NCBI GenBank assembly: GCA_963770565.1
Contig: CAVYQE010000010.1
Span: forward strand, 93,826-157,825
Direction of reading: 5' to 3'
Length of the DNA stretch: 64,000 nt
DNA from: an uncultured Actinomycetota bacterium
GTDB lineage: Bacteria; Actinomycetota; Actinomycetes; JAFAQI01
Shown here piece by piece: positions 2,815-31,733 of this stretch; positions within the stretch are counted from its first letter, which is position 1; each line of letters begins with the position of its first letter. Under the pieces are notes generated by a model that saw only the letters and a list, made by a program, of their open reading frames with translations, made no database searches and was not told the DNA's origin. Made by a program: the position numbers and the translations under genes.

Positions 2815-3930
2815 ATGGCGGTGGCAGCCGAGCAAGCCGCGATGCGGCGCGCTCTCGCCCTTGCCGAATCCGTCCTCGGTACGACGAACCCCAACCCCGC
2901 GGTCGGTGCCGTTGTCCTCGACGAGCTCGGCCAGCCGGTCGGCGAGGGTGCGACCGCACCGGCCGGCGGCGACCACGCCGAGATCGTCGCGCTTGCGGCC
3001 GCCGGTGACAGGGCCCGCGGCGGCACTCTTGTCGTGACCCTCGAGCCCTGCCGGCACACCGGCCGGACCGGTCCGTGCACAACCGTGATCCTGGCCGCCG
3101 GGGTGGCTCGCGTCGTCTACGCCGTCACCGATCCCAACGAGCGCGCGCAAGGCGGTGCGGACGAGCTCCGCCGCGGTGGGGTCGAAGTCGAGGCCGGCTT
3201 GCTCGCACCCGACGTGGGGCGGCTGCTCGAACCGTGGCTTGCCAGCGTGGCGCGGCACCGCCCGTACGTCACGTGGAAGTACGCCGCCAGCCTCGACGGC
3301 CGCACCGCCGCGGCGGACGGGACCAGTCGCTGGATCACCGGGCCGGTCGCTCGTGCCGACGTCCACCGGGAGCGGGCCCTTGCAGACACGGTGATGGTCG
3401 GGATCGGCACCGTGCTCGCCGACGATCCGGAACTGACCGTCCGCGACTGGCCGACGCCGCGCCAACCGATCCGGGTGGTGGTCGATTCCGCGGCCCGGAC
3501 CCCACTATCCGCTCAGGTGCTCAGTCCAGCTGCGTTAACGATCATCGCGGTCGCGACCGACGCAGACCCGGGACGGGTCGAGGCACTCCGATCGGCCGGC
3601 GCCGACGTCTTCGTCCTGCGCGGCGACCGCAACGGGGTCGACCTCGGGGAACTGCTCGCGGCGTTGTTCGACCGCGAGGTCCACAACGTCTGGCTGGAGG
3701 GCGGCGCCACCCTTGCCGGCTCCTTTGTCACAGCGGGCCTGGTCGACCGGGTGGTCGGCTATCACGCCCCGCTGTTGCTCGGCGCGGGCACGCCGCTGGT
3801 CGGTGACCTCGGATCCGCGACCCTCGCAACGGCGCAACGCCTTGCCCTCGACGACGTCGTACGGGTCGGCGAGGACGTGAAGCTGGTGGCGCGGATGAGT
3901 CACCGTGATGCAGAAGGGCGACCAGACTGA
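2815..3930 (+). CDS. ribD: bifunctional diaminohydroxyphosphoribosylaminopyrimidine deaminase / 5-amino-6-(5-phosphoribosylamino)uracil reductase
   Basis: Carries the deaminase zinc motifs HAEIVAL and LEPCRHTGRTGPC, followed by a reductase domain. GGAGGA lies upstream of the ATG. Confidence 0.9.
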   Translation: MAVAAEQAAMRRALALAESVLGTTNPNPAVGAVVLDELGQPVGEGATAPAGGDHAEIVALAAAGDRARGGTLVVTLEPCRHTGRTGPCTTVILAAGVARVVYAVTDPNERAQGGADELRRGGVEVEAGLLAPDVGRLLEPWLASVARHRPYVTWKYAASLDGRTAAADGTSRWITGPVARADVHRERALADTVMVGIGTVLADDPELTVRDWPTPRQPIRVVVDSAARTPLSAQVLSPAALTIIAVATDADPGRVEALRSAGADVFVLRGDRNGVDLGELLAALFDREVHNVWLEGGATLAGSFVTAGLVDRVVGYHAPLLLGAGTPLVGDLGSATLATAQRLALDDVVRVGEDVKLVARMSHRDAEGRPD

Positions 3931-4538
3931 TGTTCACCGGCATCGTCGAAACGCTCGGCACCGTGATCGCGGTCGACGAGCTGGCCGAGGCTGCCCGGCT
4001 GACGATCGACAGCACCGGCTTCGACGACGTCCGCGCCGGCGACTCGGTGGCGGTCAACGGGGTGTGTCTCACCGCCGTGACGAACGACCCGGCACGCTTC
4101 ACCGCGGACGTGATGAACGAAACCCTCACCCGGTCCACTCTTGGCAGCCTTCGTCCCGGCGAGCCGGTGAACCTCGAACGCGCGGTGACACCCAGCAGCC
4201 GACTGGGCGGACACATCGTGCAAGGGCACGTCGACGGAGTCGGCATCGTGCGCGCCCGCCGGTCGAGTGAACGGTGGGACGTGGTCGACGTCGAACTGCC
4301 CCCCGAGCTGGCGAAGTACGTCGTGGAGAAGGGCTCGATCGCCCTCGACGGGGTCAGCCTCACGGTCGCGGCAGTGGAGGGCGCAACGATCCGGGTGAGT
4401 CTGATCCCCGAGACGCTGACCCGGACGACCCTCGGCACCCGTGCGGTCGGCGACGGCGTGAACCTCGAAGTCGACGTGCTGGCGAAGTACGTCGAGCGGT
4501 TGCTCGCCGACGGGGCCGCGGATCGGGGGCAGGGATGA
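3930..4538 (+). CDS. ribE: riboflavin synthase alpha chain
   Basis: Has the MFTGIVE N-terminus and the duplicated lumazine-binding repeat ([12 protein letters not shown] / [11 protein letters not shown]). The start overlaps the ribD stop. Confidence 0.9.
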
Positions 4539-5950
4539 GCGACTTCACCGAGATCGAGCGCGCCATCGCCGATATCGCGGCCGGCAAGCCGGTCATCGTC
4601 GTCGACGACGCCGACCGGGAGAACGAAGGCGACCTGATCTTTGCCGCCGAGATGGCGACACCGGAGCTGGTCGCGTTCATGGTGCGCTACACCTCGGGCT
4701 ACATCTGCGTGCCATTGACCGAGTCCGACTGCGACCGGCTCGAGCTCCCGCCGATGTACCACACCAACCAGGACCGGCGCGGTACGGCGTACACGGTGTC
4801 CGTCGATGCCCGCGACGGCACGTCGACCGGCATCTCGGCGCACGACCGTTCACTGACGATGCGGATGCTGGCCGATCCGGCGTCGAGTGCCGCCGACTTC
4901 ACCCGACCTGGTCATGTCGTGCCGCTACGGGCGAAGGACGGCGGCGTCCTGCGCCGGCCCGGGCACACCGAGGCCGCGGTCGACCTGTGTCTACTCGCGG
5001 GCCTCCGGCCGGCCGGTGTGCTGTGCGAGATCGTCAGCGAGAAGGACGTCGAGGACATGGCTCGCCTCGACGAGCTCGAGCTGTTCGCCGCGGTGCACGA
5101 GCTTGCGCTGATCTCGATTGCGGACCTGATCGCCTACCGCCGGCGCACCGAGCGCCAGGTGCAGAGGGTCGCCGAGGCGCGGATCCCCACGGCGCACGGC
5201 GAGTTCCGCGCGGTCGGCTATCGAAGCCTGGTCGACGGGATCGAACACATTGCGCTGGTGCGTGGTGACATCGGCGCCGGCGACGACGTACTGGTCCGGG
5301 TCCACTCCGAGTGCCTGACCGGCGACGTCTTCGGCAGCCGGCGCTGCGACTGCGGCCCACAACTCGATGCGGCGATCGCCGCGGTTGCCGCCGAAGGCCG
5401 GGGAGTGGTCCTCTATGTGCGCGGGCACGAAGGCCGGGGGATCGGCCTGATGCACAAGTTGCAGGCCTATCAACTGCAGGACGAGGGTCAGGACACCATC
5501 GATGCCAACACCTCGCTCGGGCTGCCGGCCGATGCGCGCGACTACGGCACCGGCGCGCAGATCCTCTCTGATCTCGGGGTCCGTTCGATGCGGCTGCTGA
5601 CCAACAACCCGTCGAAGCGGGCCGGGCTCGAGGGTTACGACCTGTCGATCGTCGGCCGGGTGCCGCTGCCGGTGCGGGTCACCGCCGACAACCTGCGCTA
5701 CCTCACGACGAAGCGGGACCGGATGGGGCACGACCTCCCCGATCTCCCGGCCAGCGTCGACGACGAGGCGACCGAGGCAACCGCCGACGCGTTGCCGGCA
5801 GCAGTCAGCGAGCGGGCCGCGCGACTCGAGCCGGCCGCGGTCCGCAGCGCCCTTCGGCTGGCCCACGCGCATGCACTGTCGCCCTTCGCACTCCCGGTCG
5901 TCGAGCCGGGGTCGGACGATGACGAAGCCACGACCGGGGTGGATCAATGA
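4535..5950 (+). CDS. ribBA: bifunctional 3,4-dihydroxy-2-butanone-4-phosphate synthase / GTP cyclohydrolase II, with a C-terminal extension
   Basis: ATG 4535 overlaps the ribE stop (ATGA). Contains DRENEGDL and [18 protein letters not shown] motifs. The longer track ORF starting at 4274 was rejected as an out-of-gene extension. Confidence 0.88.
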
Positions 5951-25492: not shown

Positions 25493-25765
25493 GGCTCGGT
25501 TGCCCCGAGACGGGTCGAGAGACCCTGGCCGGTGCGCATCCGTCCCTTGAGAACTCAACAGCGTGCCAAAAGTCAGTGCCAAACGTCCGGTTTGGGCCGC
25601 TTCGGCGACCCCAAAACGGGCAAAAATTGGCGATGACAGACGAACAGCTAGTTTGTAAGTCTGAGCAACGTCAGGTGAATACGGTTCACCAGAACCGTAC
25701 TTTTCAATGTGTCGATGAACCGACGCCGTCCTCTTCGGAGCCGGCGACGGATTATCTGTAGACAT

Positions 25766-27289
<1,524 letters not shown>

Positions 27290-27663: not shown

Positions 27664-28220
27664 TCTTTTTTGTTTTGTAGTCAAGCTAATAAGGGCGCAC
27701 GGTGGATGCCTTGGCACCAGGAGCCGAAGAAGGACGTAGGAGGCTGCGATAAGCCTCGGGGAGCTGCCAACCGAGCTGTGATCCGAGGATTTCCGAATGG
27801 GGAAACCCGGCAGGAGTCATGTCCTGTCACCCTTGCCTGAACACATAGGGCAAGCGGAGGGAACGTGGGGAAGTGAAACATCTCATTACCCACTGGAAGA
27901 GAAAGCAACCGCGATTCCGAAAGTAGTGGCGAGCGAAATCGGAAGAGGCCAAACCAGTCACGTGTGATAGCCGGCAGGCGTTGCGTGGTTGGGGTAGTGG
28001 GACCACTTGGCCAGTTCTGCCGAACTGGCAAGGAGTGAGAAAGTGCGGCGTTAGCCGAAGACCGTGGGAAAGGTCGCCACAGCGGGTAAGAGCCCCGTAG
28101 GCGAAAACGACCGCACCTCCTTAGTGGGATCCCAAGTAGCACGGAGCCCGTGAAATTCCGTGTGAATCTGCGGGGACCACCCCGTAAGCCTAAATACTCC
28201 CTGGTGACCGATAGCGGACA

Positions 28221-28251
<31 letters not shown>

Positions 28252-28458
28252 GGGAGGGGAGTGAAATAGTACCTGAAACCGTGTGCCTACAAGCCGTGGG
28301 AGCTCAGTCGCACCTCGTGTGCGGCCGTGACCGCGTGCCTTTTGAAGAATGAGCCTGCGAGTTAGTGGTGTGTGGCGAGGTTAACCCGTGAGGGGCAGCC
28401 GTAGCGAAAGCGAGTCCGAATAGGGCGATTCAGTCGCATGCTCTAGACCCGAAGCTGA

Positions 28459-28496
<38 letters not shown>

Positions 28497-28823
28497 CGCG
28501 TGGAGGACCGAACCCACCAGGGTTGAAAACCTGGGGGATGACCTGTGGGTAGGGGTGAAAGGCCAATCAAACTCAGTGATAGCTGGTTCTCCCCGAAATG
28601 CATTTAGGTGCAGCGTCGCGTGTTTCTTGCCGGAGGTAGAGCACTGGATGGTCTAGGGGGCCTAAAAGCTTACCGAAATCAGCCAAACTCCGAATGCCGG
28701 TAAGTGAGAGCGCGGCAGTGAGACTGCGGGGGATAAGCTCCGTAGTCGAGAGGGAAACAGCCCAGAACACCGGCTAAGGCCCCAAAGCGTGTGCTAAGTG
28801 GGAAAGGATGTGGAGTCGCACAG

Positions 28824-28885
<62 letters not shown>

Positions 28886-29822
28886 AAGTGATTCCGCGCC
28901 GACAATGTAGCGGGGCTCAAGCACACCGCCGAAGCCGTGTCATTCACGTACATGCTCGGCGCTGCCTTCGGGCGGCGTCCAGGCACGTGGATGGGTAGGG
29001 GAGCGTCGTGTGGCGCGTGAAGCAGCGGAGTGATCCAGCTGTGGACGCCACGCGAGTGAGAATGCAGGCATGAGTAGCGAAAGAAGGGTGAGAAACCCTT
29101 CCGCCGAATGACCAAGGGTTCCTGGGCCAGGCTAATCCGCCCAGGGTAAGTCGGGACCTAAGGCGAGGCCGACAGGCGTAGTCGATGGACAACGGGTTGA
29201 TATTCCCGTACCCGTGATAACACGCCCATGCCGAATCCGGTGATGCTAAGCGCATGAAGCCGGCGAGTCCTTCGGGACGAGCTGGTGGACCGCGCGAACC
29301 GAACCGGTAGTAGGCAAGCAAAGGGGTGACGCAGGAGGGCAGCTCAGCCCGGGCGTTGGTTGACCCGGGGTAAGGGTGTAGGGCGAACCGTAGGCAAATC
29401 CGCGGTTCACATGCCTGAGACCTGACGCCGAGCCGTTCAGGCGAAGTGAGTGATCCCATACTGCCGAGAAAAGCCTCTAGCGAGTGTTATTGCGGCCCGT
29501 ACCCCAAACCGACTCAGGTGGTCAGGTAGAGAATACCAAGGCGATCGGGAGAACTGTGGTTAAGGAACTCGGCAAAATGCCCCCGTAACTTCGGGAGAAG
29601 GGGGGCCGCCTGGCGTGTAGGAGCTTGCCTCCGAAGCGCTGGTCGGCCGCAGAGACCAGGCTGAAGCGACTGTTTACTAAAAACACAGGTCCGTGCGAAG
29701 TCGCAAGACGATGTATACGGACTGACGCCTGCCCGGTGCTGGAACGTTAAGGGGACGGGTTAGTCCTTCGGGGCGAAGCTCAGAACTTAAGCGCCAGTAA
29801 ACGGCGGTGGTAACTATAACCA

Positions 29823-29878
<56 letters not shown>

Positions 29879-30386
29879 CGACTTCAGCGCTGTCTCAACC
29901 ACAGGCCCGGCGAAATTGCAGTACGAGTAAAGATGCTCGTTACGCGCGGCAGGACGGAAAGACCCCGGGACCTTCACTACAGCTTGATATTGGTGGTCGG
30001 TTCGAATTGTGTAGGATAGGTGGGAGACTATGAAGCGGGCACGCCAGTGTCTGTGGAGTCAACGTTGAAATACCACTCTGTTCGTACTGGCTGTCTAACC
30101 TCGGTCCGTAATCCGGATCAGGGACAGTGTCTGGTGGGTAGTTTAACTGGGGCGGTTGCCTCCCAAAAGGTAACGGAGGCGCCCAAAGGTTCCCTCAGCC
30201 CGGTTGGCAATCGGGTGTCGAGTGCAAGTGCACAAGGGAGCTTGACTGTGAGACAGACATGTCGAGCAGGGACGAAAGTCGGGACTAGTGATCCGGCGGT
30301 GGCTTGTGGAAGCGCCGTCGCTCAACGGATAAAAGGTACCCCGGGGATAACAGGCTGATCTTGCCCAAGAGTCCATATCGACGGCA

Positions 30387-30428
<42 letters not shown>

Positions 30429-30432
30429 GAGT

Positions 30433-30469
<37 letters not shown>

Positions 30470-30503
30470 TACGCGAGCTGGGTTTAGAACGTCGCGAGAC
30501 AGT

Positions 30504-31229
30504 GGACATAACGCGCTGTCTATAAATTCGGCTAAATGCTGGAAACACCGAGTATCTCGGACTACTCGTTCTTGTCGGAGCCCCTGTCTAGGGTTCCGCT
30601 ATGAGCAGTGACAATGTCTCGAGTGCGGTCAATCAGCAGGAAAGGCTGGATCCGTACATCGCAGGGTTCGTTGATGGAGAAGGTTCGTTTCACGTTGCTG
30701 TCCAACGACATCCGACTACTCGGTTGGGTTGGCAGCTCGTGCCGGAGTTTCACGTCAGTCAGGACGTGTCACGGGCTGAGGTCCTGTACCTCATCCGGGA
30801 TCGTCTCGGCTGCGGACGGATCCGGGAGAACCATCGCGGTACACGGGACACCACACTGGTGTACGTCGTGCGCCGGCGGCATGACCTGGTGACTCGGGTC
30901 ATCCCGTTCTTCGAAACGGAGCCATTGATCAGCGGTAAGCAGCAGGAGTTTGTCACCTTCGCACGCATCGTTCGCGCGATGCAGGCGGGGGAGCATCTCG
31001 ACGCTGCTGGGTTCGCTCGACTTCGGGCATCGGCGCTCGCCATGAATGGCGGGGGGCGATACCGACGAGTGCACCGTCCAGAATCCTCAGAGACTCCACG
31101 CCGAACACCGATTGCAGCTCTGATCGGTGAAGATATAGTCCGACCTGCATGGCGACATGCAGAGCCAGGCAGAAATGACCTGGCCCCAACGCTGAGCAAT
31201 GATGATTTGGCGTTGTGGTAACACATGTG
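30504..31229 (+). mobile_element. group I intron in the 23S rRNA gene (inserted between the equivalents of E. coli U2604 and U2605)
   Basis: The 5' exon ends in T and the intron ends in G. P1 pairs exon 30497-30503 with IGS 30515-30521, giving a U.G pair at the splice site. The P element AAATGCTGGAAAC is at 30534-30546, the Q element AATCAGCAGG at 30631-30640, the R element TCAGAGACTCCA at 31087-31098, and the S element AAGATATAGTCC at 31130-31141. Helices that pair by eye are P3 (30527-32/31100-05), P4 (30537-42/30633-38), P6 (30646-51/31076-81), P7 with a bulged A, P8 (31106-12/31123-29), and P9 with a GCGA tetraloop (31145-31162). Confidence 0.88.
30601..31221 (+). CDS. single-motif LAGLIDADG homing endonuclease (I-CreI-like architecture), intron-encoded
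   Basis: The 206-aa ORF has the motif YIAGFVDGEGSF at residues 19-30, followed by an I-CreI-like beta-strand pattern (HVAVQ ... WQLVPEFHVSQ). No second LAGLIDADG motif is present. The GC content is visibly lower than in flanking genes. Confidence 0.88.
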   Translation: MSSDNVSSAVNQQERLDPYIAGFVDGEGSFHVAVQRHPTTRLGWQLVPEFHVSQDVSRAEVLYLIRDRLGCGRIRENHRGTRDTTLVYVVRRRHDLVTRVIPFFETEPLISGKQQEFVTFARIVRAMQAGEHLDAAGFARLRASALAMNGGGRYRRVHRPESSETPRRTPIAALIGEDIVRPAWRHAEPGRNDLAPTLSNDDLALW

Positions 31230-31361
31230 TCGGTCCCTATCCGCCGCGCGCGCAGGAAACTTGAGAAGGGCTGTCCCTAGTACGAGAGGACCGGGACGGA
31301 CGAACCTCTGGTGTGCCAGTTGTTCTGCCAAGAGCACTGCTGGTTGGCTACGTTCGGAAGT

Positions 31362-31392
<31 letters not shown>

Positions 31393-31612
31393 ACGCTTCA
31401 AGATGAGGTTTCCCACAGGGTTAACCTGGTAAGGCCCCCGCCAGACCAGCGGGTTGATAGGCCGGAAGTGGAAGTGCGGCAACGCATGCAGCTGACCGGT
31501 ACTAATAGGCCGAGGGCTTGACTCACAACAATCTTTGCTTCGCGTCCACTGTGCGGTTCCCGAGATGCGGTCGGCTCCTCGTTTGCGGGAGCAGGACCCA
31601 CATCTCCATAGA

Positions 31613-31733
31613 GTTTCGGCGGCACAATGGCGAAGGGGAAACGCCCGGTCCCATTCCGAACCCGGAAGCTAAGCCCTTCAGCGCCGATGGTACTGCCCTG
31701 GTGACGGGGTGGGAGAGTAGGACGCCGCCGGAC
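31613..31733 (+). rRNA. rrf: 5S ribosomal RNA
   Basis: Reads GTTTCGGCGGC ... CCCGGTCCCATTCCGAACCCGGAAGCTAAGCCC ... GGGAGAGTAGGACGCCGCCGGAC, about 120 nt. Confidence 0.95.

Follow-up and report, generated by a model that had tools for sequence, protein, structure and literature searches.

Why does the 23S rRNA gene in a 64,000-nucleotide (nt) stretch of actinobacterial DNA (assembly GCA_963770565.1, contig CAVYQE010000010.1, forward-strand positions 93,826 to 157,825) carry a 726-nt insert beside the catalytic centre of the ribosome? The whole stretch is referred to below as the window, and all coordinates are given within it. A first-pass annotation of the bare letters had read the insert as a group I intron interrupting the 23S rRNA gene of a high-G+C actinobacterium, and this reading is upheld by a full-length alignment to the Rfam family RF00028 and by compensatory changes in eleven helices. 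It had passed over a LAGLIDADG open reading frame (ORF) of 206 amino acids (aa) at 30601–31221, and the intron is thus no bare ribozyme. We conclude with high confidence that site L2604 of the 23S gene is occupied by a mobile group I intron with a single-motif LAGLIDADG gene; splicing, target cleavage and homing are what its anatomy and conservation predict. The element is real, complete and very probably functional.

The window holds one rrn operon, in which the 23S rRNA gene is accompanied by a 16S rRNA gene at 25765–27283 (1613 bits, Rfam) and a 5S rRNA gene at 31615–31733 (94 bits, Rfam). The 23S rRNA gene is 3847 nt long and would measure about 3121 nt without the insert. The 5' exon terminates with ...GAACGTCGCGAGACAGT at 30503, the insert runs from 30504 (GGACAT...) to 31229 (...CATGTG) with G as both its first and its last base, and the 3' exon starts with TCGGTCCCTATCC at 31230. 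Alignment of the joined exons to a 2906-nt E. coli rrl copy places the insertion after nt 2606. In the conventional 2904-nt E. coli numbering this is between U2604 and U2605 (L2604), a numbering that leans on two landmarks, namely A2602, two nt upstream of the junction, and the pseudouridines at 2604 and 2605. This point falls in helix 93 of domain V, next to A2602 in the peptidyl-transferase centre.

The same junction is occupied in many other genomes. A search of species-representative genomes with the ORF returned 305 related loci, and the 80 best were taken further. At 72 of the 80, an insert of 689–778 nt was found at the identical junction (GAGACAGT/...G/TCGGTC), each of the 72 ending in G directly before TCGGTC. 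Five more have the identical junction behind a second intron at L2593, and the remaining three are cut by a contig end. Related genomes, which the first-pass annotation had proposed to inspect, thus show the intron at the identical 23S site in 77 of the best 80 loci, from species-level genomes that include long contigs and complete chromosomes. Its view that bacterial rRNA group I introns are rare has to be given up, with the same-site intron in at least 77 species-level genomes and site 2604 already catalogued in bacteria of the Candidate Phyla Radiation (CPR; PMC11270868). In a metagenome protein collection, 4476 homologs of the endonuclease were detected at E ≤ 1e-3, many of them 60–89% identical and encoded on contigs of about 1 kb.

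At its gathering threshold, Rfam gave no group I match in the window. A permissive Rfam search of 30440–31290 aligned Intron_gpI (RF00028) over the whole model (1–253; 36.9 bits, E = 1.1e-7), with P1, P3, P4, P5, P6, P3', P8 and P9 in the proper order; the P6 loop holds an insertion of 436 nt, and P5 is about 70 nt longer than in the model. For comparative analysis, the ORF body was removed and the cores of 73 introns (the window copy and 72 same-site relatives) were aligned. With a few mismatches allowed, every one of the 73 introns has a recognisable Q and R and 71 have S, and the RNAalifold consensus recovered P1, P3, P4, P5, P6, P6a, P8, P9, P9.1 and P9.2.

Eleven helices covary across the related introns (P1, P3, P5, P5a, P5b, P6a, P7, P8, P9, P9.1 and P9.2). 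P3 switches between UA and CG at three pairs, the P5 pair 30547:30629 is AU in 31, UA in 26 and GC in 7 sequences, and P5a and P5b show several double changes (e.g. 30558:30621, UA 43, CG 18, GC 11). The P6a pair 30648:31079 varies likewise (GC 63, CG 5, AU 3), as do, in the P7 pseudoknot that MFE folding is unable to show, the pairs 31095:31137 (CG in 55, UA in 18) and 31096:31136 (AU in 61, GC in 10). P8 and P9.2 have four to six standard pair types per position and must therefore have gone through many independent changes. Over 68 pairs in the 73 introns, 96.5% of the cells were paired as compared to a maximum of 88.7% in 500 column shuffles, and the covariation score was 0.266 against a shuffle maximum of 0.114, although the sequences are related and such shuffle controls overstate significance. 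Sliding the partners by 1–3 columns gave pairing of 0–67%. The single-sequence fold of the 3' domain reproduced P8, P9, P9.1 and P9.2, with a minimum free energy (MFE) z of -3.8.

The order of elements is P1-P3-P4-P5(a,b,c)-P6(a, with the ORF body)-P7-P3'-P8-P7'-P9-P9.1-P9.2-omegaG, a group I core in canonical order with the P3/P7 pseudoknot. P2 is absent, because P1 and P3 are just 5 nt apart, and the intron structure contains no P7.1/7.2. The conserved elements are located at 30534–46 (P), 30631–40 (Q), 31087–98 (R) and 31130–41 (S), and the 3' partner strand of P7 at 31137–42. The first-pass annotation had already placed these four elements correctly, together with the junctions, the 726-nt insert, P3, P8, P9 and two 3' hairpins (31164–84, 31185–218). 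Its seven-base-pair (bp) P1 between 30497–30503 and 30515–30521 with a U.G wobble also stands, but the guide reads GCUGUCU and not AGCTGTCT.

The splice-site wobble U30503.G30515 is U.G in 73/73 introns, and all 72 related introns end in G, in agreement with the last-exon U and terminal G first noted in the window copy. Likewise, the claim that R and S form P7 with a bulged A next to a G-C pair is borne out by 31092:31140, which is GC in 73/73 with A31091 bulged. We infer that G31092:C31140, beside the bulged A, is the guanosine-binding pair, by analogy to Tetrahymena G264:C311. The inner P1 pair 30504:30514 switches between GC (51 sequences) and AU (15). A weak P10 can form in the window between CG 30512–13 and C31231-G31232 of the 3' exon; 21 relatives have ACCG, complementary to exon CGGU, where the window has ACG.

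The ORF matches Pfam LAGLIDADG_1 (PF00961) at aa 20–123 with 68.8 bits (cut-off 23.1; E = 8.4e-19). Its motif is YIAGFVDGEGSF; within YIAGFVDGEG, all 24 homologs aligned share D25, G26, E27 and G28, and the acidic residue at the motif end (E27, the catalytic position) is present. There is one Pfam stretch in a single domain (aa 9–151, nt 30625–31053) and not a tandem two-domain monomer. The protein thereby conforms to the single-motif homodimeric type (I-CreI, I-CeuI, I-TnaI), which has a single alpha-beta-beta-alpha-beta-beta-alpha domain of some 150 aa. Sequence matches in the PDB include both halves of I-SmaMI, I-OnuI and I-LtrI, which are two-domain enzymes (E about 1e-31), the single-domain 5gkk (E = 3.6e-26), I-Vdi141I and I-CeuI, and, weakly, derivatives of I-CreI (E = 1e-12). 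AlphaFold models aa 9–151 at a predicted local distance difference test score of about 90, whereas aa 152–206 score below 40 and are predicted to be a disordered tail. The closest PDB structure is I-TnaI (5gkk), with 39% identity, a root-mean-square deviation of 1.3 Å and a template modelling score of 0.85 on target, and in the structure comparison I-TnaI and I-Vdi141I match along the whole length. The endonuclease domain has a median pairwise ratio of nonsynonymous to synonymous substitution rates (dN/dS) of 0.17 over 685 pairs and by this measure evolves under purifying selection. Of 73 copies of the ORF, 71 are intact. At two loci (L063, L066) the frame stops 78 and 103 codons past the motif while the ribozyme core is intact; these may be decaying endonuclease genes or assembly errors. 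An antisense ORF of also 206 codons (30759–31379, minus strand) lies over the intron and is one of the many spurious ORFs expected at 70% G+C.

Gene and ribozyme are closely interleaved. The AUG of the ORF (30601–03) is located at the base of P5b, and codons 1–17 form the 3' strands of P5b, P5a, P5 and P4 and the 5' strands of P6 and P6a, i.e. parts of six helices, with element Q encoding N-Q-Q. The folded endonuclease domain is encoded within the P6a loop. The last ~50 codons, which specify the tail of aa 152–206, traverse P6a', P7, P3', P8, P7', P9, P9.1 and P9.2, so that the ORF overlaps much of the core, including elements Q, R and S. In homologs, the tails are the same core RNA read in three frames (PESSETIRRTP, ASRILRDHTPN and IQNPQRPYA; also GEDMVRPAWRHAEPG and KIWSDLHGDMQSQAE). 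Judged by these alignments, the tail is conserved as RNA and not as protein. The coordinates of all features are collected in Table 1.

Table 1 The interrupted 23S rRNA gene, its intron and the parts of the intron in window coordinates
Feature	Position	Strand	Evidence and remarks
Interrupted 23S rRNA gene	27679..31525 (3' end about 31525)	+	Rfam LSU_rRNA_bacteria, 2486 bits; exons align to E. coli rrl on both sides
23S exons	5' exon 27679–30503; 3' exon 31230 to about 31525	+	3' end reads ...GGCUUGACU
Group I intron, 726 nt	30504..31229	+	Rfam RF00028 full-length alignment, RNAalifold consensus, covariation
P1, 5' exon strand AGACAGU	30497..30503	+	pairs with 30515–30521; U30503 is the 5' splice-site U (E. 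coli U2604)
Internal guide sequence	30512..30521	+	GCUGUCU (30515–21) makes P1; C30514 pairs with G30504
P3, 5' strand UUCGGC	30527..30532	+	partner GCCGAA 31100–31105; 100% paired in 73 sequences
P4 5' strand (30537–42) and P5 5' strand (30547–50)	30537..30550	+	partners 30633–38 and 30626–29
Extended P5 arm	30554..30624	+	P5a 30554–62/30616–24; P5b 30563–71/30603–10; P5c hairpin 30576–83/30591–98
Single-motif LAGLIDADG homing endonuclease ORF, 206 aa + stop	30601..31221	+	Pfam LAGLIDADG_1; fills 85% of the intron
P6 (30639–41) and P6a (30646–50), 5' strands	30639..30650	+	partners 31084–86 and 31077–81
Element R and P3 3' strand	31087..31105	+	P7 5' strand C31088, G31090, G31092–U31095, A31091 bulged; P3' 31100–05
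P8 hairpin, 7 bp, 10-nt loop	31106..31129	+	strands 31106–12/31123–29; double compensatory changes in all 7 pairs
Element S	31130..31143	+	J8/7 AAGAUAU and P7 3' strand AGUCCG; kept in 71/73 introns with ≤2 mismatches
Peripheral 3' domain	31145..31218	+	P9 31145–51/31156–62 (GCGA tetraloop); P9.1 31164–69/31179–84; P9.2 31185–92/31210–18
omegaG, last intron nucleotide	31229	+	3' exon starts at U31230 (E. coli U2605)

The hosts of the best 80 loci are nearly all Actinomycetota metagenome-assembled genomes (MAGs; Acidimicrobiia/Acidimicrobiaceae, Thermoleophilia, Gaiellaceae and Solirubrobacterales), the closest being one Streptosporangiaceae MAG with 82% amino-acid identity. Two loci lie outside the phylum. 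L061 is on a 6-kb contig labelled Methylococcaceae and its endonuclease is 68% identical to that of the window; a mis-binned short rRNA contig is as likely here as transfer across phyla. L080, from an Omnitrophota MAG, is the most divergent same-site relative (50% amino-acid identity). Across 31 genomes, distances between host 23S sequences correlated with those between endonucleases (Spearman 0.71) and between cores (0.79), whereas in some host pairs that are 1% apart in 23S the endonucleases are about 20% apart. We read this as long residence in the phylum with some turnover, not as a recent one-off acquisition.

The first-pass annotation had rightly noted that the intron is less G+C-rich than the genome (58.1% as compared to 69.7% for the window) and had taken this to suggest horizontal acquisition. 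The low G+C content is not evidence of foreign origin, because the intron equals the 23S exons (58.1%) and the 16S rRNA gene (58.6%), and recent horizontal acquisition on this ground was rejected, the divergence of the intron also tracking that of host 23S. G+C at third codon positions of the ORF (0.68 vs. 0.81–0.91 in host genes) hints at a foreign or poorly adapted gene and, with the discordant pairs, leaves room for occasional transfer.

Introns at L2604 are frequently accompanied by further introns within the same 23S gene; the window gene has a single intron only. At five loci (L015, L032, L038, L039 and L045) a second intron occupies L2593, 11 nt upstream of the L2604 intron (at 192–576 in L038), and between the two lies an 11-nt exon, CGYGAGACAGT, that holds A2602. 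This exon could hardly stay in place unless both introns were precisely excised and the exons ligated, from which we infer that they are. Gaps in BLAST alignments show further insertions of 300–1900 nt, up to three or four per gene, in many of the 23S genes with an L2604 intron (L002–L079), at approximate E. coli positions of about 1915–1935 (36 loci), 1945–1956, 2264 and 2500–2514. L061 (1752–2014, 63.5 bits) and L032 (1225–1492, 58.4 bits) also have ORF-less group I introns of about 265 nt, which reach the Rfam gathering score while the ORF-bearing L2604 introns of these loci do not. Two other loci, L027 and L028, are two rrn copies of the Acidimicrobiaceae MAG MFD05841.bin.3.176. The endonuclease is encoded in both; the L2604 junction was confirmed in L028, and in L027 the contig ends before the 5' side is complete.

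Taken as a mobile group I intron, the element would work as follows. In the rrn transcript, the intron would fold into the canonical P3–P9 core, and the guide GCUGUCU would pair with exon AGACAGU so that U2604 is held in the U.G wobble. Free guanosine bound at the P7 pair G31092:C31140 would attack after U30503, the terminal G31229 would then occupy the same site, and ligation of the exons would yield an uninterrupted 23S rRNA with helix 93 and A2602 restored. The endonuclease would act as a homodimer and cut intron-less 23S rDNA around ...GAGACAGT/TCGGTCCC... (predicted target GAACGTCGCGAGACAGTTCGGTCCCTATCC), and repair of the double-strand break would then copy the intron into the cut allele (homing). 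A palindromic homing site was also considered and set aside as too weak as evidence, 7/14 symmetric pairs matching about the insertion point.

To the relatedness of the aligned sequences, several further points must be added that weigh against this reading. The covariance-model search that the first-pass annotation had named as a check gave a significant E-value but a score below the Rfam gathering cut-off (36.9 vs. 50 bits), and the same-site intron was below the gathering threshold in all 11 related loci checked; the insertions in P6 and P5 plausibly account for the low score. P4 (73/73) and P6 are invariant and thus uninformative either way. The single-sequence MFE structure of the 5' domain is an alternative fold in which P5b and P5c appear and P4/P5 are lacking, and we therefore relied upon the comparative data. 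P10 is just 2 bp in the window copy. As the ORF lies over the core, translation and folding compete on one RNA. Finally, splicing, endonuclease activity and homing are read from sequence, and the window shows one rrn copy of the genome.

Among the alternatives, an unlikely one is that the group I intron does not self-splice autonomously and needs the LAGLIDADG protein as a maturase, or a host factor, for efficient excision, in which case splicing would be as much a reason as mobility for keeping the protein. Maturases of the LAGLIDADG type are well established (I-AniI, bI3), and such a role would fit an endonuclease domain with a dN/dS of 0.17 that is intact in nearly all copies, the weak P10 of the window, and an intron that looks largely vertical, is present in both rrn copies found for one MAG (L027/L028) and so meets few empty targets. 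Against this stands a complete core of canonical form, whose P9 carries a GNRA cap and whose peripheral helices are long; the catalytic acidic E27, often lost in pure maturases, is invariant; and endonucleases about 20% apart in hosts 1% apart fit continuing turnover by homing.

A wider version of this idea is more doubtful. It would make the L2604 introns a large, mostly vertical lineage across Acidimicrobiia, Thermoleophilia and Actinomycetes in which the LAGLIDADG protein is kept also as a splicing maturase, and in which the start of the gene within six helices renders translation and folding mutually exclusive. If true, maturation of the catalytic centre of the ribosome would depend on an intron-encoded protein.

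It is very improbable that the insert is retained in mature 23S rRNA, or excised without ligation like an RNase III-processed intervening sequence (IVS) to leave a fragmented 23S rRNA. Precedents exist in bacterial 23S IVSs and in one 'unspliced' group I intron, described in literature that PMC11270868 cites, and the Simkania intron is reported to stay in the mature 23S rRNA. The L2604 insert, however, sits in helix 93 by A2602, in the catalytic centre and not in a peripheral helix, and the 11-nt exon between two introns would hardly be retained without ligation. Moreover, none of the 73 copies deviates in the splice-site U.G, the terminal G or the G-binding pair, and the catalytic core covaries; there would be no reason for this if the splicing chemistry were not in use. 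That this rrn copy is dead or unexpressed and its intron a decaying relic, an idea for which only the single operon of the genome within the window speaks, is hardly credible given full-length and well-conserved 16S, 23S exons and 5S (1613, 2486 and 94 bits), an intact core and ORF in the window, an endonuclease domain under purifying selection in the family, and the recurrence of the arrangement in 77 genomes at species level, long contigs and complete chromosomes among them. An archaeal bulge-helix-bulge intron and a group II intron were set aside in view of the explicit group I core.

The host of the element is probably uncultured. That this host is a high-G+C actinobacterium is supported by the 69.7% G+C of the window and by a 23S sequence about 93–94% identical to that of L002, an 'uncultured Actinomycetota' MAG. 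Housekeeping genes in the window include pheT, ribBA, recN, pyrG, murJ and der. A flavin mononucleotide riboswitch (2472–2630, 77.8 bits) lies upstream of the riboflavin operon, with a 371-aa ORF at 2815–3930 and ribBA at 4274–5950.

The element is neither unique nor of a new kind, and it has a practical bearing on rRNA annotation. It escapes the Rfam gathering threshold, and the Rfam bacterial large-subunit (LSU) rRNA model runs on into the intron for 76 nt: intron sequence is made to fit the last 350 model positions, and the window hit (27679–30579) is reported as a 'complete' 23S (model 1–2925) that ends at 30579. The model thereby misplaces the 3' end of the 23S rRNA and misses the 3' exon, and automatic pipelines will therefore truncate or split such genes. 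Assemblers also tend to break contigs at the intron, many homologs being on contigs of about 1 kb. Bacterial rRNA group I introns have been regarded as rarities outside the CPR; here many uncultured Actinomycetota share a coherent family of them, inserted at a single site of the peptidyl-transferase centre. With a gene so tightly interleaved with six ribozyme helices, the intron offers a clear-cut natural example of dual coding in which to study the balance between splicing and expression, and the endonuclease is a new candidate meganuclease whose 23S target is defined.

Among known systems, the chloroplast intron Cr.LSU of Chlamydomonas with its enzyme I-CreI (L2593) is likewise of group I, encodes a single-motif LAGLIDADG enzyme that acts as a homodimer, and lies 11 nt upstream of the present site. 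It differs in its insertion site, and because of this I-CreI has a different DNA target. To our knowledge, the Cr.LSU ORF does not run through the core as it does here. The 23S intron of Thermotoga is inserted in domain IV, at position 1931. As cited in PMC11270868, this intron and I-TnaI (Nesbo and Doolittle 2003) share with ours a bacterial 23S location and a single-domain LAGLIDADG endonuclease; they differ in insertion site and phylum, and self-splicing was shown there and is predicted here. The references given in PMC11270868 extend 23S group I introns with a LAGLIDADG gene to Simkania, Coxiella and cyanobacteria. According to the same citations, the twin 23S introns of Coxiella burnetii flank a 34-bp exon (Raghavan et al. 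2007) and are thus parted by a very short exon, as in five of our relatives, but they occupy sites 1917/1951 in another host, whereas the window gene has a single intron. RNase III-processed IVSs resemble the insert in adding to a bacterial 23S gene a sequence that the mature functional RNA lacks. They form short, extended stem-loops within peripheral helices and are removed without ligation (PMC11270868), a description that does not fit a 726-nt insert that lies in helix 93 of domain V, has a covarying group I core and carries an endonuclease gene.

The nearest counterparts are the 2604 introns of CPR bacteria/Patescibacteria. A survey of these bacteria lists position 2604 among the frequent sites of LAGLIDADG_1-encoding insertions (J Bacteriol 2024, PMC11270868); the enzyme characterised there, I-ShaI, comes from insertion site 23IS7 and not from position 2604. 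Compared by description, the CPR introns agree with ours in position, LAGLIDADG_1 ORF, Rfam group I class and membership of the peptidyl-transferase-centre cluster, and they differ in host, Actinomycetota here as opposed to CPR, with secondary structure and ORF-core overlap lying outside the CPR study. In the part of its table considered here, a 2018 archaeal survey lists LSU sites 1931, 2500 and 2593 and leaves 2604 unmentioned. The first-pass annotation knew of no such intron in Actinobacteria, and our search of the open-access literature likewise found no published actinobacterial/Actinomycetota 23S group I intron of this sort. The kind of element is well known; new are the host phylum for a recently catalogued site, the unusually extensive overlap of ORF and core, and a large set of previously undescribed relatives.

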